The translations under genes were made by a program, and so were the position numbers. The notes under the pieces are model-generated. The model did no database searches, was not told the origin of the DNA, and saw only the letters and a list, made by a program, of their open reading frames with translations. A stretch of DNA of 64,000 nucleotides from Bacteriovorax stolpii (lineage in GTDB: Bacteria; Bdellovibrionota; UBA1018), in contig CAMAQA010000006.1 of NCBI GenBank assembly GCA_945860415.1, positions 959 through 64,958 of the forward strand, read 5' to 3'. This document shows, piece by piece, positions 1 through 14,028 of the stretch. Each line of letters starts with the position of its first letter. Position 1 is the first letter of the stretch.

Positions 1-304
1 TATCGACCGTTTTCTGACCGAGAATTCGTTCAAGTCTTCGGATCTTGGCTTCGAGCTCACGAACCTGGCTTTCCGGAATCACCTTTTCTTCAGAGCCAAC
101 AGCAGTCAGTGCGCCTTCTTCCATTCTTCGCCTCCAGTAAAATAACTGGCTTGGCGGAATACCATGCCTACGCGCAACCAGGGAAACAGTTACTCCTGGC
201 TCGTAAGTCTCCTGAACGATGTGCTTTTTCTCGGCAGGAGCCCACCGCCGGCGTCGTTCCTTGGAGGTCATCACCTCGATTTGTTCCCGCTTATTACTAG
301 TCAT
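1..304 (-). CDS. IS3/IS66-family transposase accessory protein OrfA (Transposase_8-type HTH), 5' part only. The gene runs off the window start.
   Basis: Minus-strand translation from the ATG at 304 gives MTSNKREQIEVMTSKERRRRWAPAEKKHIVQETYEPGVTVSLVARRHGIPPSQLFYWRRRMEEGAL...ELEAKIRRLERILGQKTVD. The RRRW..EK..IV....G.SV..VARRHG....LF.WRR motif plus a C-terminal leucine-zipper-like coiled coil is typical of IS OrfA/TnpA. It is missing from the ORF track because it is truncated by the window edge. Confidence 0.7.
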   Translation of the reverse strand, partial: MTSNKREQIEVMTSKERRRRWAPAEKKHIVQETYEPGVTVSLVARRHGIPPSQLFYWRRRMEEGALTAVGSEEKVIPESQVRELEAKIRRLERILGQKTVD

Positions 305-330
305 ATTCCTAGTCTTATTCCTATGTCTTA
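1..330 (-). mobile_element. Edge of an insertion sequence whose body lies beyond the window start. The putative IS end is in the AT-rich stretch 305-330.
   Basis: Transposase OrfA fragment; local drop in GC; an imperfect direct repeat TTCCTAGTCTTA / TTCCTATGTCTTA at 305-330 abuts the stop of the neighbouring DUF2442 gene. Confidence 0.45.
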
Positions 331-594
331 GCGACTCAGACTGGGCCGGTCGAAAGCGGGGCTACTACAAAACCAAAGCGAATCTGCACAAAATTCTACT
401 TCACCGGGCCATTCGATAGCGCGCCCATCCCTGGTAATCTTCACTTGTTTAAAGACATCGGGGTTAGCGAGAGACTCCGTAACGGTATCTTTTTCAATTT
501 TGTTCGTAAAATCGATCTCTATGGTTTTTCCGTCGTCGTAATTGATCTTTATTCGAAAGTTAGAAAGGACCTCACAGGATAGGATCTTTCTCAT
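328..594 (-). CDS. DUF2442 family protein
   Basis: MRKILSCEVLSNFRIKINYDDGKTIEIDF...ITRDGRAIEWPGEVEFCADSLW matches the DUF2442 pattern. AAGGAG lies 8 nt upstream of the ATG at 594. The internal Met was chosen rather than the 702 start of the ORF track. Confidence 0.7.
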   Translation of the reverse strand: MRKILSCEVLSNFRIKINYDDGKTIEIDFTNKIEKDTVTESLANPDVFKQVKITRDGRAIEWPGEVEFCADSLWFCSSPAFDRPSLSR

Positions 595-611
595 GGTGCA
601 CTCCTTAAAAT

Positions 612-872
612 TTATTCTAGCGGAGCAATATCGACCGGTTTTTGCTTTTTCACGCAAAGGTCCCAATCGACCATCAGCTCGACCTAGTGAAGAGCCGCCC
701 ATTCAAACACGAGCGACTTTACCCGGTTTGGAAGATTCCCCTCGAGAATCTGAATGGGTGAGATCCCTACAAGAGCCTCAAAATCACCGTAAACGGCGTG
801 AAAATGCGGCGGGTTGTGATCACTGTAAAACATATGAATCGTGATTCCGAAAAATGTCGAAATAGTCGGCAT
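612..872 (-). pseudogene. DUF4160 family gene interrupted by an in-frame TAG (amber) at 684-686. The conserved C-terminal coding sequence continues in frame to a TAA at 612-614.
   Basis: The N-terminus MPTISTFFGITIHMFYSDHNPPHFHAVYGDFEALVGISPIQILEGNLPNRVKSLVFEWAALH has the DUF4160 hallmark HNPPHFHA. Directly after the TAG, the same frame reads VELMVDWDLCVKKQKPVDIAPLE*, which resembles the usual DUF4160 C-terminus (..ELLENWELA....IEPLE). Confidence 0.6.
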
Positions 873-1396
873 TAGACTTGGCCTCTTTTGAGCGATTGCT
901 CGATCTGGTGAGAGATCTCGGCTTGCTCGTTCTTGGAAAAGCCAGGAACCCCACCCCGAACCTCAGGCCAGACCGCCTCGTTGAAGTGACTCCGCAGGGA
1001 GCTTTCACGGGCGCTCGCGATATGACGAACCACTTCAGGAACCAGGGTGCCAAGCTGCTCGGAACTTAACCCCCTCCTCCACTCTGCAAACTCCAGTTCC
1101 ATGAGTTCCCGCTCCTCGGCCTGCCGGCGCTCCTCGATACGTCGTTTGCTTTCGACGTAAAGACGTCTGGCTGCCTCTACAGGGATCTCAAAGTTCTCGG
1201 GTGGGGCATAGAGTACCCCTTTTCGTAAAATGCCCATGAAGAAGCTTATAGGCGGTCCCTTGAGGTTCTGACCCTTCCCGTTCTGCTTCAGGTCAAAGGC
1301 GAAGTGGTGGATGGAATCTTGGACCTCGTCAGGGGTGAGCTTGCCATGACGGGCGAGTTGAACCAGGTGCGCGGGACCGAACCCCACATCGGCCAA
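872..1396 (-). CDS. Hypothetical protein (174 aa), translationally coupled (TAATG overlap) to the downstream DUF4160/DUF2442 pair.
   Basis: Long ORF whose stop overlaps the DUF4160 start by 1 nt. I recognise no domain. Confidence 0.5.
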   Translation of the reverse strand: MADVGFGPAHLVQLARHGKLTPDEVQDSIHHFAFDLKQNGKGQNLKGPPISFFMGILRKGVLYAPPENFEIPVEAARRLYVESKRRIEERRQAEERELMELEFAEWRRGLSSEQLGTLVPEVVRHIASARESSLRSHFNEAVWPEVRGGVPGFSKNEQAEISHQIEQSLKRGQV

Positions 1397-1501
1397 TGGG
1401 GTCAGGTCGACCTCCGCCCATGCGCCGGAAAGTTGTGCAGGCGCGTCATGGAAAAACTCCGGTTCGCCAGTAGTAGTAGTTTTTGAATTCCCTAAATCTA
1501 A

Positions 1502-2173
1502 ATGATTTCCATGCTTCGATCATTGCCGCTGACCGTATGGCTGATTGGCATCATCAGCCTCGTCAATGATAGCGGCAGCGAGCTGCTTTATCCTTTGATT
1601 CCGATTTACCTGTCTTCGGTTCTCATGGCCGGTCCCCGTGCGATGGGCCTCATTGAAGGCGTCGCAGAGTCGACCGAAAGCATCCTGAAGCTCTTCTCGG
1701 GGGTGATCGTGGATCGCTTCCATCGCTTCAAGCCCTGGTTCGTTTTTGGCTACGGTATTGCCGGCGTTGGTCGCCCATTGATTGCTTTCATCACCTCCTG
1801 GCCGATGCTGCTAGTGATTCGATTTGCGGATCGTGTCGGAAAGGAGCTCAGAACATCGCCCCGCGATGCCCTGCTGGCTTCAAGCGTTCCTCCAGAGAGG
1901 CATGGGCTGGCCTTCGGCTTTCACCGTGCCATGGACAATGCCGGAGCAGTGGTTGGTCCTATTACAGCAGCATTCCTTCTCTCGCGCGGCGTTGCACTCC
2001 GAGATCTGTTTCTCTGGTCGGCCATTCCGGCCGCAATCTGCATCATGCTCGCCGTCCTGATTCGAGAAGAGAAGCCGGCGCTCGCGCAGCATCCTGCGCC
2101 GCTGTTTCGCCAGTATGTCGATTCAGCCGGAATCACGGCCGATGATCGACTGGGGGTGCAGGGGATCGGCTAG
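1502..2173 (+). CDS. MFS-type transporter, N-terminal six-helix half only (223 aa). Possibly a truncated remnant.
   Basis: Hydrophobic segments plus MFS motif A (GVIVDRFHRFKPWFVFG). The ORF stops in the central loop and sodB begins 45 nt later, with no continuation in another frame. Confidence 0.55.
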   Translation: MISMLRSLPLTVWLIGIISLVNDSGSELLYPLIPIYLSSVLMAGPRAMGLIEGVAESTESILKLFSGVIVDRFHRFKPWFVFGYGIAGVGRPLIAFITSWPMLLVIRFADRVGKELRTSPRDALLASSVPPERHGLAFGFHRAMDNAGAVVGPITAAFLLSRGVALRDLFLWSAIPAAICIMLAVLIREEKPALAQHPAPLFRQYVDSAGITADDRLGVQGIG

Positions 2174-2217
2174 CCGCTTGCCGGGCGAATGGAGGAGGAC
2201 TTGCAGCACGATACTTC

Positions 2218-2817
2218 ATGAAGCTGCACCAGCTGCCGGAGCTGAAGTATTCGCTTTCCGCGCTCGAGGCCATGGAGTTCCACTATGGGCGCCATCACCA
2301 GGGCTATGTCGACAAGTTGAATGAACTAGTCCGCGGAACGCCGCAGGGCGAGATGAGCCTGACGGAGCTGGTGCGTTCGGCTCCAGAGGGGCCTCTGTAC
2401 AATAATGCCGGCCAGCATTGGAACCACTCCTTCTTCTGGAACAGCCTGACTCCTCGAGCGGCAGTAATTCCTCGAGGTGAACTGCTCCAGGCCATGGAGC
2501 GGGATTTCGGATCGGTTGAGGAGTTCCAGAAGGAGTTTGAACGTCAGGGCGTGGCTCACTTTGGTTCGGGTTGGGTGTGGCTCGTTCGCGAGGATGAAGG
2601 GGGCGGGCTTTCGATCCGGACGACTCACGATGCCGGAAACCCACTCCGTGACGGAGGGGGGCGACCCCTGCTCGTGTGCGACCTTTGGGAGCACGCCTAT
2701 TACATCGACTATCGGAATGAGCGCGCCCGGTACCTCCGGACGTACTGGAGCTTCGTGAACTGGTCCTTTGCACAGGCCTGCTATGAATCGGAGCGCATCC
2801 ATCCTGCCGTGGCTTGA
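2218..2817 (+). CDS. sodB: Fe/Mn superoxide dismutase
   Basis: ELPELKYSLSALE, HHQGYV, NNAGQHWNHSFFW, GSGWVWLV and DLWEHAYYIDYRNERARYL are all classic Fe/Mn-SOD motifs. Confidence 0.95.
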   Translation: MKLHQLPELKYSLSALEAMEFHYGRHHQGYVDKLNELVRGTPQGEMSLTELVRSAPEGPLYNNAGQHWNHSFFWNSLTPRAAVIPRGELLQAMERDFGSVEEFQKEFERQGVAHFGSGWVWLVREDEGGGLSIRTTHDAGNPLRDGGGRPLLVCDLWEHAYYIDYRNERARYLRTYWSFVNWSFAQACYESERIHPAVA

Positions 2818-3727
2818 GCTCTTCGCAGGCCTTCTGGCTGCTGCAGTGCTTGCGCCCGAGTTGAAGCCTGTGCCTGCCTGGCAGGCATCGAAGGGAATCG
2901 CGTATCGACTGAGGAGCCCACCCACATCGACAGGGCAGTCAGGCACCGACTCGGAGCTTCCAGCGCGATCTGTGGCAATCCAAGCGTCAGCCGAAACTGA
3001 TTCCGCACTTCGCGAGGTGCAGGACCGAATCGCTGCCGCCAGCCTGAAGCAGTTCAGTGATGAAAATGAACTTGCACGAATCGAAGACTCTCGCCGGCAG
3101 GACATGGACCGCGCTGCGGAGCTCCGCGCTCGGATCAGCCGGATTTCGCGAGACTTGCTGATCGCCCGCGAGGAGCGTGATTCGGCCTCGCGAGACGTCC
3201 TTGCCAGGCAGGAGCAGAAAGATGCCGTGGTGGAAGCGCAAAGAGTTCGCAGCCAGGGATTGCTGGCAACACTTCAGGCTGATCTGGCCGACAAGAATCT
3301 GGAGCACCGGGTGACCGTCCAGAAGGTCAGAGATCTCGAGTCACAGAACTTCGAGAGCGATGAGCTCGTCTCGGCTCGTGAAAGAGAACGAGTCGTTTCG
3401 GGGGAGCGCGCTCAGCTTGCGGCCCGCGTGGAGGAGCTGCGCACCGAGTTGAGGACGCAGGAGCTCGCGGTCAGTGAGTCGCGGAACTGGGCGCTCGAGC
3501 AGCAAAAGGACGACATCTATCGACAGTATGAGTCCAGGGTCCGAGAGCTCCAGTCGCAGTACGCGGCACTTCAGGAAGAGCTCGATACGATCGAGCTTCG
3601 TCAGGACCAGAGTCGAAGCCAGCTTGCGGAAGTGGATGAGCGTCTGCAGCTCGGACAACAGCAGATCGACGAACTGGAACAGCGCCGAAACGAGATCCTG
3701 ACCCGGATTGCCAACCGGGCTTCCTGA
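2783..3727 (+). CDS. Secreted coiled-coil protein (hypothetical)
   Basis: Signal-peptide-like N-terminus (MNRSASILPWLELFAGLLAAAVLA) followed by a long heptad-rich, E/R/Q-rich sequence. The start is uncertain and overlaps the sodB 3' end. Confidence 0.5.
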   Translation: MNRSASILPWLELFAGLLAAAVLAPELKPVPAWQASKGIAYRLRSPPTSTGQSGTDSELPARSVAIQASAETDSALREVQDRIAAASLKQFSDENELARIEDSRRQDMDRAAELRARISRISRDLLIAREERDSASRDVLARQEQKDAVVEAQRVRSQGLLATLQADLADKNLEHRVTVQKVRDLESQNFESDELVSARERERVVSGERAQLAARVEELRTELRTQELAVSESRNWALEQQKDDIYRQYESRVRELQSQYAALQEELDTIELRQDQSRSQLAEVDERLQLGQQQIDELEQRRNEILTRIANRAS

Positions 3728-3763
3728 TTGCCTTTGCCAGTCTGGCGGCAGAGAATCGGGTCC

Positions 3764-4681
3764 ATGAAATCTCGTTCCTGGATGCTCCTCTCGGCAGTAG
3801 CCTGCTCACTCTTCGCGACCAGCGCTCATGCGCAGCCCCCCGGATATCAGGCCCGCACGGATCGCAGGTACCCGCAGGTCGTGGAATTCCTGAAACGGCT
3901 CGAGTCGAAGCATCCGGGACGAGTGTCGCGATTCGTGCTGGGGAGATCGGATTCCGGGGCGGACATCGAAGGCCTTCGGATTGGAAGTGGGCCGGGCCGT
4001 GGTATGATCGTTGCCACCCACCACGGCAACGAATACGGATCCTCCGAAGTGGCACTTGCCGCGGCTGCCGATCTCTCGGAACAGCCGATCTCGACGATGA
4101 CGGTTTATGTCGTTCCTGTGCTCAATGTCGGTGGCTACAACTCACGATCGCGTGAAGAGAAGGCGTCAGGAAGGTCTCATGATCCGAATCGCGATTATCC
4201 AGGCCCATGCGGCAGCGACAGCGAGTTTGCGCTTCGGTCCACTCGTGCCTTGGCTGAATTCGTTGCACGTGAATCGATCGTGAGCGTGGCCACCCTTCAT
4301 ACCCATTATCCCGCGGTCGTCTACCCCTGGGGCTTCAGTACTCGCGATCTCGAAACCGCGCACCAGGCCGAGTTCGTGAAACTGGTCGAAGCGTCCGTGG
4401 TCGAGAGCCGGTATGAGACGGGCAATTCCAGTACGGTCATTTATCCCGCAAACGGAACCTTCGAGGACTTCGCCTTCTGGAAGCATGGAATCTGGTCGCT
4501 GCTCTTCGAGCTCGGCTTCTCGCACTCTCCTCGGGTTGCCGAAATCGAGGAAATGGTCCGCGTGAATTTTCCTGGGCTCAGATCCCTGATCGAAACTGCG
4601 CCGAAGAGGCGGGCTTCGCGGCATGCGTTCACCGGCAAGTGTGACGACTCGCTTCGGATTCTCGATCGTCGCGACGAATGA
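3764..4681 (+). CDS. M14-family zinc carboxypeptidase, secreted
   Basis: Signal peptide MKSRSWMLLSAVACSLFATSAHA, then VATHHGNEYGS and HDPNRDY motifs typical of M14 metallocarboxypeptidases. Confidence 0.7.
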   Translation: MKSRSWMLLSAVACSLFATSAHAQPPGYQARTDRRYPQVVEFLKRLESKHPGRVSRFVLGRSDSGADIEGLRIGSGPGRGMIVATHHGNEYGSSEVALAAAADLSEQPISTMTVYVVPVLNVGGYNSRSREEKASGRSHDPNRDYPGPCGSDSEFALRSTRALAEFVARESIVSVATLHTHYPAVVYPWGFSTRDLETAHQAEFVKLVEASVVESRYETGNSSTVIYPANGTFEDFAFWKHGIWSLLFELGFSHSPRVAEIEEMVRVNFPGLRSLIETAPKRRASRHAFTGKCDDSLRILDRRDE

Positions 4682-4693
4682 TCGGCGGGATGA

Positions 4694-6088
4694 TCACCCC
4701 TGGTCGTGCGCGAGCGTTCCTCGCGGCGACCTGAGGTACACGAACGGAGTTGCCTCCAGGAAGTGCCCGACCCGCGAAGTGTACACGTCGGCATAGCGCT
4801 CGAGCTGAAACGCCAGGTGACTCTTGTCGTTACCCGCGCGCATCAGGGGCCCCCAGATGGGGTGTCCCAGCTCGGTCGACTGGCGCGCCAATGGGGCAAT
4901 CTTTCGGTCGACCTCTTCGAGCTGGAGCTTCAGCTGCTGCATGCTTGCCTGAGTGGAGGCAGGGTCGCCAACCTGAGGCCCATAGCCCTTTTGGATGCGC
5001 TGCAGATTCAGCCGGAGCGCCGAGTACTGGGCCTCGAGCCGTTCCTTCTCCTTCATCAGTTCCGCCAGGAGCAGCTGGCTGGCGTGAAACGCCTCGGCAG
5101 CGACAATCTCCTCCTCGAGTTCGTTGACGATCAGGGCCGTGCGCCAGCGCAGGATGCTTTTGGTCACCTGGACATCACCAAAGACATGGTCGCCCACATA
5201 GAGAAGCTCGTCGCCGGAAAGCCCCAGGTGGCGTTCCACGGCGCGTGCGCTGCCGCCGAAATACACCGCGCCTTCCTTCAGGTCTCCAACGAAGGGTCGG
5301 AGCAGCCCCTCGCCGTTGACAACCTCAAAGAAGGAATTAGTGGTGGTGAAGAAGTCGGGCTTGCGGGCACTCACGATCACCACGTCAAAGAGCGATCGCC
5401 AGCCCATTCCTTCCGGAAGGAATCGGTCGAAGGCAAAGCTCATCATGTGCTGCGTGTAGCTCCACTCGGAGTTCGTGATCAGGAGAAGCTTCTTTCCGGA
5501 GTGCTTCTGATCGAGAAGCGCGAGCGGGACATCCGGATCAAGCCGGACGAAGTGCTCGGGATGGGCCATGATCTCAGCTTTCAGGCGGCCCTCGGCGTGG
5601 ACGGCATCGAGCGTCCGGCGTACGCGGTGGTAGAGGTCGACATAGCCCAGATGCTCGGGAATCTTTCCTTCGTCGAGAAGGTCGACGAGCTGCGCGTAGA
5701 AGCAGCCTTCTGAGAGCGAGAAAAAAGTATTCAGGAAGATCCATCGCGTTTCATTGAGGTCGACGATCGTGCGTTGATACGCTTCGCGAAGTCCGTCGTA
5801 CTCCAGCAGTTTGGTGCCATGCACGGCACGCTTCACGAAACCAAAGCGATTGGTCTTGAGGATGTTTCCCTTGTGGGCGTCGATGACCAGTCCTCGTCGC
5901 ACGAGGTTCGGATCGAACTGAAGGTGGTCGACCGGCCAGCCTTCCTGGACGAATCGTTCCTTGAGGTACTTGTAGGCGCGCTCCTCCCACTGGTGCACGT
6001 CGTAGTGGATGAGGGTGTAATCCATGTCGTAGCCGACGGCCTGGATGGAGCGCAGATTCAGGGTACGGTTGCAGTAGAGGTGCATCAC
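4694..6088 (-). CDS. HAD-superfamily 5'-nucleotidase (cN-II / PF05761-like)
   Basis: N-terminal NRTLNLRSIQAVGYDMDYTLIHY (DxDxT HAD motif in a cN-II context); 464 aa. Confidence 0.8.
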   Translation of the reverse strand: MMHLYCNRTLNLRSIQAVGYDMDYTLIHYDVHQWEERAYKYLKERFVQEGWPVDHLQFDPNLVRRGLVIDAHKGNILKTNRFGFVKRAVHGTKLLEYDGLREAYQRTIVDLNETRWIFLNTFFSLSEGCFYAQLVDLLDEGKIPEHLGYVDLYHRVRRTLDAVHAEGRLKAEIMAHPEHFVRLDPDVPLALLDQKHSGKKLLLITNSEWSYTQHMMSFAFDRFLPEGMGWRSLFDVVIVSARKPDFFTTTNSFFEVVNGEGLLRPFVGDLKEGAVYFGGSARAVERHLGLSGDELLYVGDHVFGDVQVTKSILRWRTALIVNELEEEIVAAEAFHASQLLLAELMKEKERLEAQYSALRLNLQRIQKGYGPQVGDPASTQASMQQLKLQLEEVDRKIAPLARQSTELGHPIWGPLMRAGNDKSHLAFQLERYADVYTSRVGHFLEATPFVYLRSPRGTLAHDQG

Positions 6089-6144
6089 TGCCGATTCTAG
6101 CGAGAATTTGCGGCCCGGACGAGGACCGTTTTGTCAGGATCGAG

Positions 6145-6705
6145 TCAGTTCTGGAGCTTGAAGACGAAGGATAGATTGAGCTTGCGGTCGGGCAGGGTCC
6201 CCGGTGGCACGTCGAGTCGTGTGGATTCTAGAAAGTTCAGAGCGGCATTGTCCAGGCGAGTGTGGCCGCTGGAGCGGGCGATGGCCACCTCGGCAGCCCT
6301 GCCATCGCCTCTCAGCATGAATTCCAGTGTCACAGTGCCTTCTTCTCCCGCACGACGTGAGAGTGGAGGGTACTGCGGCGCACCCTGTGGTGCCACGAGC
6401 GTTCCTGCGGGCAGGAGTTGTTCTCCGTGCTGACCCACGGTCGCCGCAGGTGGCGATGCGGCAGCTCCTGTTGACTGCGGTGTGCTCATCGAGGGGCGTG
6501 CCCTTTGCCGAGCTTTCCTGGGGGGCGAGTCTGTGCCGCTCGGACCGCTCCATCGCATCTCGACCACTGCCGACGGGTGGGCGGACCCGAGGCGAAACCG
6601 TTGTTCGATCCATCCCCCGCCCAGACCGAGTCCCAGCACCACCACACCTGCGATGAGCAGGTGAGTGATGGCGGATCGGACCAGCGCGAGGGTGAATGGT
6701 TTCAT
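6145..6705 (-). CDS. tonB: Energy transducer TonB
   Basis: N-terminal TM helix, Pro-rich spacer, and a C-terminal TonB_C-like segment (YPPLSRRAGEEGTVTLEFML...DGRAAEVAIARSSGHTRLDNAALNFLE). It lies immediately downstream of the TonB-dependent receptor. Confidence 0.8.
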   Translation of the reverse strand: MKPFTLALVRSAITHLLIAGVVVLGLGLGGGWIEQRFRLGSAHPSAVVEMRWSGPSGTDSPPRKARQRARPSMSTPQSTGAAASPPAATVGQHGEQLLPAGTLVAPQGAPQYPPLSRRAGEEGTVTLEFMLRGDGRAAEVAIARSSGHTRLDNAALNFLESTRLDVPPGTLPDRKLNLSFVFKLQN

Positions 6706-6711
6706 TCGAAC

Positions 6712-8601
6712 TCAGATTTCCTTCTGCAGGCCGACGTACAGCGATCGCCTTGCTGTGCCATATCCGGCGACCTCCTCGTACTCGCGATCCAGCACGTTGT
6801 CGAGCCTTCCGAAGGCCTTGTATCCTCCGCCAATCGTGTAGGAAGCATCAGCATTGAAGACGGTGTAGGAGGGCATGCGGATGGTACTAAAACCCGGGTC
6901 GGTGTCGTTTCTGATGCCGACATAACGGGCATTGATCCCGAAATCGAGGCTCTGGAGTAGCTTGCGGCGAGCGCTCAGGTGCAGGCTTTGTCTGGGACGC
7001 CTGATAAGATCCTCGTTCTTGTCATTGTTCCTCGCCATTAGAAATGTGTGTTGGATCGTCAGGCTGGAGCCCGAGGGTGATGAGTAGCTGAAACTGGTTT
7101 CAAGGCCCTTGTTTGTTGCGGAACCGATGTTCTTGTACTTGAACATATCCGTCGGATCGCCAAGGATGAGATTCGAGAACTGGGATTGGAACCATGTGGT
7201 CTGGAGAGTGAGACCTGGGCCCAAATCCTGTTGCATCGACAGATCATAGCTGAAGCTGGTTTCTGATGAGAGTGAAGGATTGCCGTAAATTGGGGCGTAA
7301 ATCTGATCGAGGCTGGGGATCTTGAATCCTCTTCCCAGGCTTCCCTTGAGCGTTGTCCCAGTACTCTCGAATCGATGCCCCGGGCCCAGTCGGTAAGTCA
7401 GTTGGTTCCCAAAACCGTGAAACCGATCTCCGCGCAGTGCCACGCTGGCGAAGCTGCTTCCTGATTTCCACCTATTCTCGGAAAAAATTCCTGTTACGGA
7501 TTGGCTTACTGACGGCATCGCGCTGATGTAGGCGCCGTACTGGTCGTAAATCGAACCTCGGTCAATTTGGCTGTCGATTCCGATAGTCAGGGTGTTTGAG
7601 TCATTCAGGATGAATTGGTTCAGCTGCTCGAGACGGAATCGAGCGCCATGATAGCGCCCGGTAGCCGAATCGGCATGGATAAGGTCCGGTGCGTTATCAG
7701 TCTTTCGAAAGGTCTTGAAAAAAGAGAGCGCGATCGTCGGTTCCCAGTTGGAGTTTCCTTGGTAGCTCACTTCGGCCCGAGCAGTTCCTTGTGTCTCAAA
7801 CTGAACGTGATTGGGATCATCTCCGCCGCTTCCCCCTGAGAAAGGAAGTTCAGAGCGCGCCTGATATGCCCTTGCCGTGGTCCGAAGGTGCCACGCGTCT
7901 TTCAATTTGGTCTCGGTGGATACAGTTCCTGAAAAGTTTCGGTACCCGCTATTGATGGAGTTGCCGTACCTCGAGGAAGCGGCTGGAAATCCTTCACTCT
8001 CATCGTATCCGAAGTTGAGATTGACTGTACTTAATCCCACCTCTCTCGCTGCGAGTATTGATCCACGTCGAGTATCGAAGGCACCATATTCTCCGAAAAT
8101 CGACGCAGAGTTGCTTTGCTGGCGGCGGGTGATGATGTTGATCACGCCTCCGATGGCATTCGCACCGTGCACTCCGCTCTGTGATCCACTAAGGACTTCA
8201 ATTCGGTCCACCTGTCGAGCGTTGAGCCTGCCAAAGTCATAGCCTCTAGCCGGGCTGGATGGATCGTTCATCACCACTCCGTCGACCATGACGAGTGTCT
8301 GCTGGTATCCTGATCCCCGGATATAAACTTCGGTGAGTCTACCCGGCCCTCCGGAATTCATCACGCTCACTCCAGGGGCCGAACGTAGGAGCTCGAAGAT
8401 CGGTTTGCCGGACTGGCGGTCCGACTCGGTCGGTTCGATTACTGCGATGGACTGAGCAACCTCATCCTGGGGAGTCGTAATGCGGCTTGCCGTAATCACC
8501 ACCGGCTCGAGATTTTCGGTCTCTTCACCGTATGCCTGGGAAAGGGTCGCACAGACCGTGACCGCGCTGATGATGCAGAGCCTGTAGAGAGATCGTTGCA
8601 C
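6712..8601 (-). CDS. btuB: TonB-dependent outer-membrane receptor, inferred cobalamin transporter because a B12 riboswitch sits upstream
   Basis: Signal peptide, plug domain (VVITASRITTPQDEVAQSIAVIE... TEVYIRGSG), 629 aa barrel. GTG start. A cobalamin riboswitch lies in the 5' leader. Confidence 0.8.
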   Translation of the reverse strand: MQRSLYRLCIISAVTVCATLSQAYGEETENLEPVVITASRITTPQDEVAQSIAVIEPTESDRQSGKPIFELLRSAPGVSVMNSGGPGRLTEVYIRGSGYQQTLVMVDGVVMNDPSSPARGYDFGRLNARQVDRIEVLSGSQSGVHGANAIGGVINIITRRQQSNSASIFGEYGAFDTRRGSILAAREVGLSTVNLNFGYDESEGFPAASSRYGNSINSGYRNFSGTVSTETKLKDAWHLRTTARAYQARSELPFSGGSGGDDPNHVQFETQGTARAEVSYQGNSNWEPTIALSFFKTFRKTDNAPDLIHADSATGRYHGARFRLEQLNQFILNDSNTLTIGIDSQIDRGSIYDQYGAYISAMPSVSQSVTGIFSENRWKSGSSFASVALRGDRFHGFGNQLTYRLGPGHRFESTGTTLKGSLGRGFKIPSLDQIYAPIYGNPSLSSETSFSYDLSMQQDLGPGLTLQTTWFQSQFSNLILGDPTDMFKYKNIGSATNKGLETSFSYSSPSGSSLTIQHTFLMARNNDKNEDLIRRPRQSLHLSARRKLLQSLDFGINARYVGIRNDTDPGFSTIRMPSYTVFNADASYTIGGGYKAFGRLDNVLDREYEEVAGYGTARRSLYVGLQKEI

Positions 8602-8609
8602 GCCGTTGC

Positions 8610-8805
8610 CTTTCGTCGTTGCCAGTCACGACGAAAGGAGGTCGAGCGACCTAAAGACGAGGCTCGGTTCCCGGATCCAGAATCCCTTTTCCACGAGGAT
8701 TCGACCCCTGACGTCATTCTGGCAGTGGACCCTGGAGGGCGATCGGACTTTCACCGTTGCGGGCCAGCGCCGGAATTTCACCGGACTTCAGCCGTTCCAG
8801 GACAT
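8610..8805 (-). promoter_or_regulatory. Cobalamin (B12) riboswitch with an RBS-sequestering expression platform, in the btuB leader
   Basis: The minus strand reads ...CCGGTGAAATTCCGGCGCTGGCCCGCAACGGTGAAAGTCCG (8783-8743), matching the conserved GGUGAAAUUCC...GCUGCCCCCGCAACGGUAA core. The B12 box GTCCACTGCC is at 8730-8721. A 10-bp hairpin (CCTTTCGTCG / CGACGAAAGG, forward 8609-8638) can occlude the GAAAGG Shine-Dalgarno 9 nt before the GTG start. Confidence 0.8.
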
Positions 8806-10617: not shown

Positions 10618-13600
10618 CTACATGTTTCTGCGATACTGGCCGCCCACTTCAAAGAGGGCCTGGGTGATCTGGCCGAGCGAACAGACCTTCGTGGCCTGCA
10701 TGAGCTGGTCGAAGATGTTTCGCCCCTGGGCCGCCGCCGAGCGAAGCTCGATGAGCGATTGGCCACACTCCTCCGAGCGGAAGCGATGAAGCGCCTTCAG
10801 CATGGAGATCTGGTACTCCTTTTCGTCGTTGGTTGCTCGGATGACCTCGCGTGGAATCACCGTGGGTGAACCCTCCGACGAGAGGAATGTGTTCACGCCG
10901 ATGATCGGGTATTCGCCCGTGTGCTTGAGCATCTCGTAATGGAGCGACTCTTCCTGGATCTTGCCGCGCTGATACATCGTTTCCATCGCGCCCAGCACGC
11001 CACCGCGTTCGGTGATCCGGTCGAACTCCGCCATGACGGCCTGCTCGACGAGATCTGTGAGCTCCTCGATGATGAAGGATCCCTGGTTCGGGTTCTGGTT
11101 CTTGGCGAGGCCCAGCTCGTGGTTGATGATCAGCTGAATCGCCATCGCACGGCGCACAGAAGCCTCTGTCGGGGTCGTGATGGCCTCGTCATAGGCATTC
11201 GTGTGCAGCGAGTTGCAGTTGTCGTAGATGGCGTACAGGGCCTGCAGCGTCGTGCGGATGTCGTTGAAGTCGATCTCCTGGGCGTGGAGCGAACGTCCGG
11301 AGGTCTGGATATGGTACTTGAGCATCTGCGAGCGCGAGTCGGCACCATACTTGTGCTTGAGTGCCTTGGCCCAGATTCGTCGCGCCACGCGTCCGATGAC
11401 CGAGTACTCCGGATCGACGCCGTTCGAGAAGAAGAACGATAGGTTCGGCGCGAACTGGTTGATGTCCATGCCGCGCGAGACGTAGTACTCGACGAAGGTA
11501 AAGCCGTTGGCGAGGGTGAAGGCCAGCTGCGTGATCGGGTTCGCGCCGGCTTCGGCGATATGGTAGCCCGAGATCGACACCGAGTAGAAATTCTTGACCT
11601 GGCTTCGGATGAAGTAGTCCTGGATGTCGCCCATCATGCGCAGGGCAAACTCCGTCGAGAAGATGCAGGTGTTCTGGGCCTGGTCTTCCTTGAGGATGTC
11701 GGCCTGGACGGTGCCGCGCACCTGGCTCAGGGTGTGCGCCCGGATCTTTTCGTAGACATCCTTCGGCAAAACCTCGTCACCCGTCACTCCCAGCAGCATC
11801 AGTCCGAGGCCGTCATTTCCGGGGGGCAGCTCTCCCTGATACCGTGGGCGTGGCAGGCCCTTGGCCTGGAATAGCCCATCGATGCGCGCGTTCACTTCGT
11901 CCGTGAGACCGTTCTGGCGAATGTAGCGCTCGCACTGCTGGTCAATCGCGGCGTTCATGAAGAAGCCCACGAGCATCGGCGCGGGCCCGTTGATCGTCAT
12001 CGAGACCGAAGTCTTCGGGTCGCAGAGGTTGAAGCCCGAGTAGAGCTTCTTGGCGTCATCCAGGCAGCAGATGGATACGCCGGCGTTGCCGATCTTGCCG
12101 TAGATGTCCGGCCGTCGATCCGGGTCAAAGCCGTAAAGCGTGACCGAGTCAAAAGCGGTGGAGAGGCGCTTGGCTGGCATCGCGCGCGAGACGTAGTGGA
12201 AGCGTCGGTTCGTGCGCTCCGGGCCGCCTTCGCCAGCGAACATGCGCGTCGGGTCTTCTCCCTCGCGCTTGAACGGAAACACGCCGGCCGTGTACGGAAA
12301 TTCTCCCGGAACGTTCTCCTGAAGGCTCCAGCGCAGGATGTCTCCCCAGGCGCGGTAGCGGGGGAGGGACACCTTGGGAATCATCAGGTGCGACAGGGAT
12401 TTCGTGTGCGTCTCGACGCGAACATCCTTGCCGCGGACCTGGTAGATGAACACCGGATCGCGATAGGCCTTCACTTTTTCGGGCCATTTCGCGAGAAGGT
12501 TTCTGCATTCAGCATCGAGCTTCAGCTCGAGCTCGGAAGCCTGCTTCGCAAGGGCGTCGCGGGCTGGCTTCAGTTCAGCGCTCTCCGGAAGGACCGCCAG
12601 TGATTCACGAAGCGACTGAAGCTGGTGAGCGAGTTCCGCCTGTTTTGACGTCCACTCGTCGTAACGGCGGATGGTTTCGGTGATCTCCGAGAGGTAGCGC
12701 GTGCGCTCCGGCGGTATGATGTGGATCTTGCGCGACTCCTCGCGCGTGGCTGCCACGGATGAGGTGAACGGACTTCCGGTCTTGTTGACGATCGTGTCAA
12801 TGAGCGTCCGGTAGAGGCGGTTCATTCCAGGATCATTGAACTGCGAGGCGATGCTGCCGACCACCGGCAGGTCCTCATCGCTGCCTTCAAAGAGCTTGTG
12901 GTTGCGGCGGTACTGCTTGCGCACGTCGCGAAGCGCGTCCTGGCCTCCTCGCTTGTCGAACTTGTTGAGCGCGATCACGTCGGCAAAATCGAGCATGTCG
13001 ATTTTTTCGAGCTGGGTCGCGGCGCCATATTCCGGAGTCATCACGTAAAGCGACACATCCGAATGCTCAGTGATTTCGGTATCGCTCTGGCCGATGCCCG
13101 ACGTCTCGAGAACGATGAGATCGAAGCCTGCGGCCTGCGCGATGGTGAGCGCCTCCTTGACGTGCTTCGAGAGCGCAAGGTTCGCCTGGCGCGTGGCGAG
13201 CGAGCGCATGTACACGCCCTGGTGGTGGACGGAGTTCATGCGGATGCGATCGCCGAGGAGCGCGCCGCCGGTCTTTCGCTTCGAGGGGTCGACCGAGATG
13301 ACGGCAATGCTCTTGTTTGGAAAGTCCGTGATGAAACGACGGACGAATTCATCGATCAGCGAGGATTTTCCTGCGCCGCCAGTTCCGGTGATTCCGAGTA
13401 CGGGTGCCTTTTTTGTGCGCTTCTCCGCCGTCGCGTGAATGGCTCCGATCAGGCCCGTGTTCTGTTCTGGGGCATTTTCTGCGGCCGAGATGGCATTCCC
13501 GATGATGCGTGATTCGCGCGACTTCAGGCGCGATAGAAACTGATCCAGCTCCTTGCCGGACTGGGGCAGGCCCGAGCCCGTGGCGAAGTCGCTATTTTCG

Positions 13601-14028
13601 ATCAGGTGATTGATCATCCCCTGGAGGCCCATCGCGCGGCCATCATCGGGAGAGTAGATGCGGGTGACTCCCGCAGCATGAAGCTCCTCGATCTCCGAGG
13701 GCAGAATCACGCCGCCACCCCCGCCGAAGATTCGGATATGGCCGCAGCCGCGCTCTTTCAGCAGCTCGACCATGTACTTGAAGTACTCGACATGGCCGCC
13801 CTGATAGGAGGTCATGGCGATGGCCTGGGCGTCTTCCTGGATGGCGCAGTCCACTACCTCGGCAACCGAGCGGTTATGGCCCAGATGGATGACCTCGGCG
13901 CCGGTCGACTGCAGGATTCGCCGCATGATATTGATCGCGGCGTCGTGCCCGTCAAAGAGCGAGGCAGCCGTCACGATGCGGATCTTGTTTTTTGCCGGGT
14001 AAGCTGAGACTTCAGGGTTCTGAGCCAT
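10618..14028 (-). CDS. icmF: Fused isobutyryl-CoA mutase IcmF (B12-binding domain, MeaB-like GTPase, mutase catalytic domain)
   Basis: N-terminal B12-binding DGHDAAIN (DxHxxG) motif, P-loop [13 protein letters not shown]-terminal methylmalonyl/isobutyryl-CoA mutase TIM-barrel region; 1136 aa. Confidence 0.85.

Follow-up and report, generated by a model that had tools for sequence, protein, structure and literature searches.

The dhiTA pair of Dickeya dadantii, which encodes a DUF4160 and a DUF2442 protein, has been shown experimentally to be an autoregulated type II toxin–antitoxin (TA) system in which the toxin gene comes first (PMC8198452). Another DUF4160/DUF2442 pair (87 and 92 aa), carried by a Thermus plasmid, raises plasmid persistence and does not tolerate the deletion of its second gene, the antitoxin (PMC12724237). 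The C-terminus of the Thermus toxin is predicted to change upon antitoxin binding (PMC12724237). DUF4160 also occurs as an effector domain in NsnC-like proteins of the Menshen systems, and the study describing them reports no confident structural homologue (PMC12065111).

The window analysed here, a stretch of 64,000 nucleotides from Bacteriovorax stolpii, carries on its minus strand a DUF4160 frame (872-612) followed by a DUF2442 gene (594-328), with 17 nt between them. This succession on the same strand is that of a DhiTA-type module, and the pairing is also found in the related loci L161-L167 and L169. The module has the same two Pfam domains as DhiT/DhiA of D. dadantii 3937, with the toxin gene first and the genes closely spaced. 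It differs from DhiTA by the premature stop in its toxin gene and by the foreign C-terminal tail of its antitoxin, and antitoxins of the window type have 88-91 aa against the 160 positions of the DhiA model. The NCBIfam model toxin_DhiT (NF048015) is the best one for the intact relative P0001, with 84.4 bits against an equivalog cut-off of 100, and the antitoxin scores 21 bits with the DhiA model (NF048016, positions 1-67 of 160, cut-off 200). Because both scores fall below the equivalog cut-offs, the module should be regarded as a distant homologue of DhiTA, not as an equivalog. Growth inhibition by such a toxin and its neutralisation by the antitoxin have been demonstrated only in the Dickeya and Thermus homologues (PMC8198452, PMC12724237). 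PADLOC gave no match in the window.

The proteins of the Thermus thermophilus Persistence-Enhancing Module are nearly equal in size to those of the intact relatives of our module (86 and 91 aa). Both this module and the close relatives of the window copy are plasmid-borne, the former beside replication or partition genes, the latter in a backbone with ParA, resolvase, KfrA, and relaxase genes. In contrast, the window copy appears to have lost both its plasmid backbone and its activity, and no role in persistence can be ascribed to it. The Menshen proteins share the Pfam domain with the window gene, which differs from them in being stand-alone, 86 codons long, and paired with DUF2442.

TA loci commonly decay by mutations that inactivate the toxin. 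The window resembles such cases in that it has a nonsense codon in the toxin gene, an antitoxin gene with its own ribosome-binding site, and a patch of low G+C content beside an insertion sequence (IS). It departs from them in that both partners are decaying, the antitoxin having had its tail replaced and a proline changed to serine.

An amber codon within a conserved 86-codon frame

The DUF4160 frame starts on the minus strand with an ATG at 872-870 and runs for 62 codons (MPTIST...EWAALH) to a TAG at 686-684 (Table 1). Past the TAG, the same frame continues for 23 codons, VELMVDWDLCVKKQKPVDIAPLE, up to a TAA at 614-612. The original prediction had described this arrangement accurately to the base. 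The 62-aa product matches positions 1-56 of the 65 positions of the Pfam profile of DUF4160 (PF13711) with 57.7 bits, above the gathering cut-off of 23, and the read-through product matches positions 1-64 with 70 bits. The window therefore lacks an uninterrupted DUF4160 frame of about 86 codons, the TAG falling at position 57 of the profile. The 62-aa product is on record as P0130, whose contig of 65,303 bp can be found in NCBI, ENA, and Logan alike, and it is a called gene on L168, a separate assembly of the same locus, too.

Table 1. Features of the locus and of the related loci mentioned in the text; positions refer to the window unless a locus is named.
Feature	Position	Strand	Basis or remark
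End of IS3-family element	1..369	-	HTH_Tnp_1 orfA, junction with L169
DUF2442 (DhiA-like antitoxin), 88 codons, chimeric 3' end	328..594	-	PF10387, 37.2 bits (cut-off 23.9)
Relic of a plasmid, 1,133 bp; 98.4% identity with L169	370..1502	-	homology with L169 breaks off abruptly at 369/370 and 1502/1503
AAGGAG resembling a Shine-Dalgarno sequence, 6 nt ahead of the DUF2442 ATG	601..606	-	read from the sequence
Original TAA stop of the 86-codon gene	612..614	-	148 of 155 homologue loci end the frame after 86 codons
23 retained DUF4160 C-terminal codons (helix a2 and ordered tail), now probably untranslated	615..683	-	homology, structure model
In-frame amber TAG, codon 63; ancestral CAG (Gln)	684..686	-	Gln in all close homologues; C in L169
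DUF4160 (DhiT-like toxin), first 62 codons	687..872	-	ORF; Pfam PF13711; model of P0001, an intact relative
3' fragment of the 461-506-aa backbone gene, no start codon	875..1501	-	tblastn; homology with L169 ends at 1502
Half MFS transporter gene, 223 codons, abutting the relic	1502..2173	+	MFS_1 profile 3-184 of 347
Stop-carrying DUF4160 relative	L138:2775-3032		
Stop-carrying DUF4160 relative	L067:789-1046		
Stop-carrying DUF4160 relative	L151:145-402		
Relative plasmid backbone	L161:196-6896		
Relative plasmid backbone	L165:3-4238		
Relative plasmid backbone	L166:3-6268		

The search of a large protein collection resulted in 365 matches, the best 120 of which were analysed. Exactly 86 aa, the length of the read-through product, is the size of 110 of these best 120 homologues. 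In the 23-codon tail, L66, W70, and L85 are invariant, and E65, I82, and P84 are nearly so. The lengths of the homologues and the invariant residues of the tail indicate that the codons downstream of the TAG are there by homology and not by chance. The proposal that they form the C-terminus of DUF4160 is thus confirmed, both by the 86-aa homologues and by the extension of the PF13711 match, and the converse possibility, that DUF4160 proteins would normally end where the TAG stands, is contradicted by the same homologues.

The column of the TAG contains Q in 71 and R in 45 of the best 120 homologues, and Q in all close relatives. At the DNA level, 57 of the 155 full-length loci have CAG at codon 63 and 36 have CAA (93 together); the closest lineages (L081 and L161-L164) use CAG, and L165-L167 use CAA. 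Hence, the homologue alignment, which had been proposed as a way to identify the replaced sense codon, shows that the TAG stands for CAG (Gln63). Scans of genomes and metagenome contigs found nothing above 60% identity except L081 (85%).

Three of 167 other DUF4160 loci carry in-frame stops, all at other codons: a TAG at W58 in L138, a TAG at Y28 in L067, and a TAA at Y28 in L151. DUF2442 is intact downstream in L067, and none is visible after L138 or L151. The occurrence of two independent stops at the invariant Y28 may be a coincidence, 22 of the 86 codons being one step away from a stop. These three cases look like sporadic knock-outs rather than a conserved signal.

What the stop removes was assessed on a model of P0001, used as a stand-in that has two residue differences from the window toxin, plus Q63. 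The AlphaFold2 model (pLDDT 95.1, pTM 0.87) has five strands (residues 3-46), a helix a1 (49-61), a helix a2 (63-74), and an ordered tail (75-86); the PDB contains no solved structure resembling this fold, in agreement with PMC12065111. The invariant motif H19-x-P21-P22-H23-F24-H25 belongs to the 62-codon part, which encodes strands b1-b5 and helix a1. According to the model, the stop lies at the a1/a2 junction and removes 24 of the 86 residues, namely helix a2 and the ordered tail.

The N-terminal β-sheet with its invariant HxPPHFH motif remains in the 62-aa product, which is a point against a complete loss of toxicity. One could thus envisage that the shortened protein is functional, either as an attenuated or antitoxin-independent toxin or as a decoy, or that it is complemented by a 20-aa peptide starting at the ATG at 674-672. 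The preservation of the β-sheet core would fit this reading, as would the in-frame ATG (M67) close behind the stop, and the predicted change of the C-terminus of the Thermus toxin on antitoxin binding (PMC12724237) means that the tail may serve regulation, not activity. Yet the lost part holds the invariant and near-invariant tail residues listed above, it is modelled with pLDDT >90 within the fold, and the 86-codon frame is kept in 148 of the 155 homologue loci. Moreover, an active toxin unable to bind its antitoxin would be lethal, and no comparable 62-aa form was found among the relatives. We therefore consider a functional 62-aa protein very unlikely.

The Met67 ATG (674-672, minus strand) is in frame, 9 nt past the TAG, and opens a 20-codon ORF, MVDWDLCVKKQKPVDIAPLE. 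Termination followed by reinitiation at this codon could in principle give a separate C-terminal peptide.

Origin and reading of the TAG

The cluster of the toxin at 90% identity contains, besides P0130, five full-length members of 86 aa (P0001, P0126-P0128, and P0131), all of them intact with Q63. The locus of P0128, L169 (Logan run SRR24319167), is 98.4% identical to positions 370-1502 of the window over 1,133 bp, with 18 mismatches and no gaps. At position 686, on the minus strand, L169 reads C and the window reads T, giving CAG in one and TAG in the other, so that the change amounts to one C>T. The comparison with close relatives that had been suggested thus finds the TAG in none of those with at least 90% identity, including this nearly identical allele.

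No window-specific amino-acid change is present in codons 64-86; at F72 and L79, where the window and L169 differ, P0001, P0126, and P0131 share the residues of the window, which makes L169 the derived one. We computed dN/dS against L081 and L161-L167 and obtained 0.05-0.16 for codons 64-86 and 0.02-0.04 for codons 1-62, values that can be used only qualitatively (dN far below dS in both parts) given that synonymous sites are saturated. The tail thus appears to have been under purifying selection until very recently. Three readings of the interrupted frame had been put forward, and the CAG-to-TAG change together with the unchanged tail supports the first of them, a recent nonsense mutation by which one partner of a DUF4160/DUF2442 pair has started to become a pseudogene. 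The other two, an error of sequencing and a stop codon that is read through, are disfavoured by the evidence that follows.

If the TAG were an error of sequencing or assembly, the true genome would have CAG and the gene would be intact. Such an error would look much like what we observe, namely one base that differs from an intact allele with 98.4% identity, with no other change accumulated in the tail of the toxin. However, the TAG is also present in L168, a Logan assembly that was built separately (run ERR5863100) and has 100% identity with positions 340-6817 of the window, i.e., over 6,478 bases. The presence of the TAG in this second assembly makes an assembly artefact unlikely; the agreement counts against an artefact of the assembler or of polishing, and it is compatible with a shared read set, in which case only an assembler artefact would be excluded, or with a minority CAG allele. 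In addition, substitution errors seldom reach the consensus, and the relic is otherwise degenerate, with a truncated upstream gene, a chimeric antitoxin, and three more substitutions at invariant positions, so that a damaged toxin fits its context. Altogether, an error has very little to recommend it as the source of the TAG.

The TAG could also be genuine and yet be passed by some ribosomes, through programmed or leaky read-through or through suppression by a supE-like tRNA-Gln(CUA), in which case the dose of toxin would be tuned down, not abolished. The downstream frame is indeed fully intact, and an amber suppressor inserting glutamine would give the exact wild-type protein. The RNA fold around the TAG is also marginally better than that of shuffled sequences (z = -2.1; 7 of 200). 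However, codon 63 is a stop in none of the 155 full-length homologue loci (the three known stops are at codons 28, 28, and 58), and programmed read-through is left without support from the family. The flanks of base 686 are identical to those of the intact L169 over 85 nt upstream and 26 nt downstream, which means that no stimulatory element was gained, and we found no stimulatory sequence or structure specific to the allele with the TAG. The other parts of the module are damaged too.

The use of TAG elsewhere in the window bears on the same question. This codon terminates 13 of the 80 ORFs of at least 200 aa, among them the gene of an IcmF-type mutase (10618-14028), which has its TAG behind a complete Pfam domain (511 of 512 positions) and whose cluster mates also have 1,136 aa. 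Hence, TAG is a working stop in the host genome. The window contains no tRNA genes. We regard read-through or suppression at codon 63 as highly improbable. A role of pyrrolysine or a reassignment of the code was considered as well and rejected because TAG ends complete genes in the window.

A plasmid relic between an insertion sequence and half a transporter gene

The layout of this end of the window consists of an IS, the 1,133-bp plasmid relic, half an MFS gene, and then the conserved core. In the close relatives, the module is part of a plasmid-type backbone whose gene order, read in L161, L162, L165-L167, and the P0127 contig, is relaxase, NikA-like, a 169-aa protein, ParA, a 461-506-aa protein, DUF4160, DUF2442, resolvase, and KfrA. 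Neither the resolvase nor KfrA is present in the window's copy. The search of the PLSDB plasmids with the relic, by blastn in distant mode, gave no match.

The gene upstream of the toxin is a remnant of the one encoding the 461-506-aa protein. Its last 200-209 codons or so are left, and the region 890-1489 aligns by tblastn to residues 257-456 of 461. The full protein has no Pfam family, only sub-threshold MarR/winged-helix matches in its middle. The TAA of the fragment (874-872) overlaps the ATG of the toxin as TAATG, an arrangement which suggests, on sequence grounds, that the toxin was translationally coupled to a partition- or replication-type gene.

Downstream of the toxin, the AAGGAG ahead of the DUF2442 ATG provides the antitoxin gene with a ribosome-binding site of its own. 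The end of this gene has been overwritten: below position 369, 13 IS-derived codons, CSSPAFDRPSLSR, and a stop replace a tail of 16 codons, EGSGEGNPYVNSEKAS. The latter is conserved in L161, L164, L165, and L169, with the subfamily pattern EGSGE.NP..SE[KR]AS. The P>S change at 474 is specific to the window and affects a proline that is invariant in the relatives. No exact record of the 88-aa DUF2442 product was found by a look-up that also missed the recorded 62-aa product (P0130).

At the IS end, the minus strand reads TGTAGTAGCCCC... from 369, and the end of the element, with a terminal repeat that starts with TG, is TGTAGTAGCC. The orfA of the element (HTH_Tnp_1, PF01527, 71.8 bits) has its ATG at 304, 65 nt past the element end, and runs off the window. 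Its best NCBIfam model is IS2 TnpA-like, and models of the IS3 family match as well, all of them below their cut-offs. The vicinity of an HTH_Tnp_1 orfA and a TG-starting terminal repeat assigns the element to the IS3 family. A second copy was found neither in the window nor in the compared loci, except for L168, a separate assembly of the window locus itself. The L168 contig ends at position 340 of the window, 30 nt inside the IS junction, as would be expected of an assembler with k=31 (an inferred value) on meeting a repeat.

On its other side, the relic abuts an ORF with a TAG as its stop, which covers the MFS_1 profile over its N-terminal half only. This ORF (1502-2173) is probably another gene fragment. 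Synteny with the sister genome L170 (77% DNA identity) begins only at 2173, and upstream of SOD this genome has a histidine kinase where the window has the MFS gene. The comparison with L170 thus places the start of synteny at 2173; it does not establish what the patch was like ancestrally. The original prediction had placed the toxin in an IS-flanked patch of lower G+C content. The composition agrees with this, with 46-50% G+C over positions 200-1000 against 59.3% for the window, and so does the first boundary, where an IS3-type element extends to 369, but not the second, which is formed by half an MFS gene.

We polarised the differences between the window and L169 with four outgroups. The changes that are clearly derived in the window are P>L (1212) and S>I (1185) in the upstream fragment, Q>stop (686) in the toxin, and P>S (474) in the antitoxin, and all four hit positions that are invariant in the outgroups. 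This distribution would fit a fragment that evolves free of selection and, with so few events, is only indicative. The view that damage concerns one member of the pair is therefore correct as to the stop in the toxin and too narrow otherwise, the upstream gene and the 3' end of the antitoxin gene being damaged as well.

Three of the four window-derived changes (474, 686, and 1212) are C>T on the minus strand, a count too low to claim a mutational bias. A promoter scan of positions 250-2300 found no sigma-70-like promoter, the sigma-70 consensus being possibly not that of the host.

Probable decay of the module away from its plasmid

The explanation that we consider very probable is that the toxin gene of a DhiTA-type module, stranded and decaying in a plasmid relic, was inactivated by a genuine C>T transition. 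A plasmid stability region would have been cut down to a relic of 1,133 bp and joined to an IS3-family element and to half an MFS gene, and the change from CAG to TAG at Gln63 would end the 86-aa toxin at 62 aa. The shortened product is presumably non-toxic, since a toxin that remained active while lacking its antitoxin-responsive C-terminus would be hard to tolerate, and the module would then be functionally dead. The loss of the toxin would be a tolerated route of decay for a TA pair, since a cell that lost the antitoxin first would die.

As the IS has taken the place of the antitoxin tail and the operon upstream is gone, the toxin null was possibly selected to relieve an unbalanced module. 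It may equally have spread by neutral drift, and the data do not separate the two. The stronger version of the former, in which the null was a selected rescue of a module unbalanced by the IS-clipped antitoxin and the lost operon, leaving an antitoxin relic that protects the host, is one that we consider possible but rather unlikely. If true, a relic that expresses the antitoxin could shield the host from addiction by the intact plasmid family, which circulates in other samples at ~98% identity. In a rarer variant of this reading, low-level amber suppression or reinitiation at M67 would keep a trace of toxin activity.

For annotation, the gene is best described as a DhiT-like toxin pseudogene in a plasmid relic, and neither as a 62-aa protein (P0130) nor as a candidate for recoding. 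As a pseudogene it is unremarkable: its family is known, it lies in the scar of a mobile element, and it matters little beyond annotation. Its value is that of a clean and datable example of TA decay off its plasmid, with the toxin probably lost to one transition, the antitoxin clipped by an IS, and the neighbours truncated. The conserved backbone of relaxase, ParA, the 461-506-aa protein, the TA pair, resolvase, and KfrA, with its TAATG overlap, is perhaps more useful, for research on plasmid stability.

Farther into the window, an AdoCbl-II (B12) riboswitch lies at 8729-8803 on the minus strand (39.9 bits, above the gathering score). It is ~1.8 kb from the mutase gene mentioned above (10618-14028, minus strand), which encodes an IcmF-type fused B12-binding/MeaB GTPase/methylmalonyl-CoA mutase of 1,136 aa.
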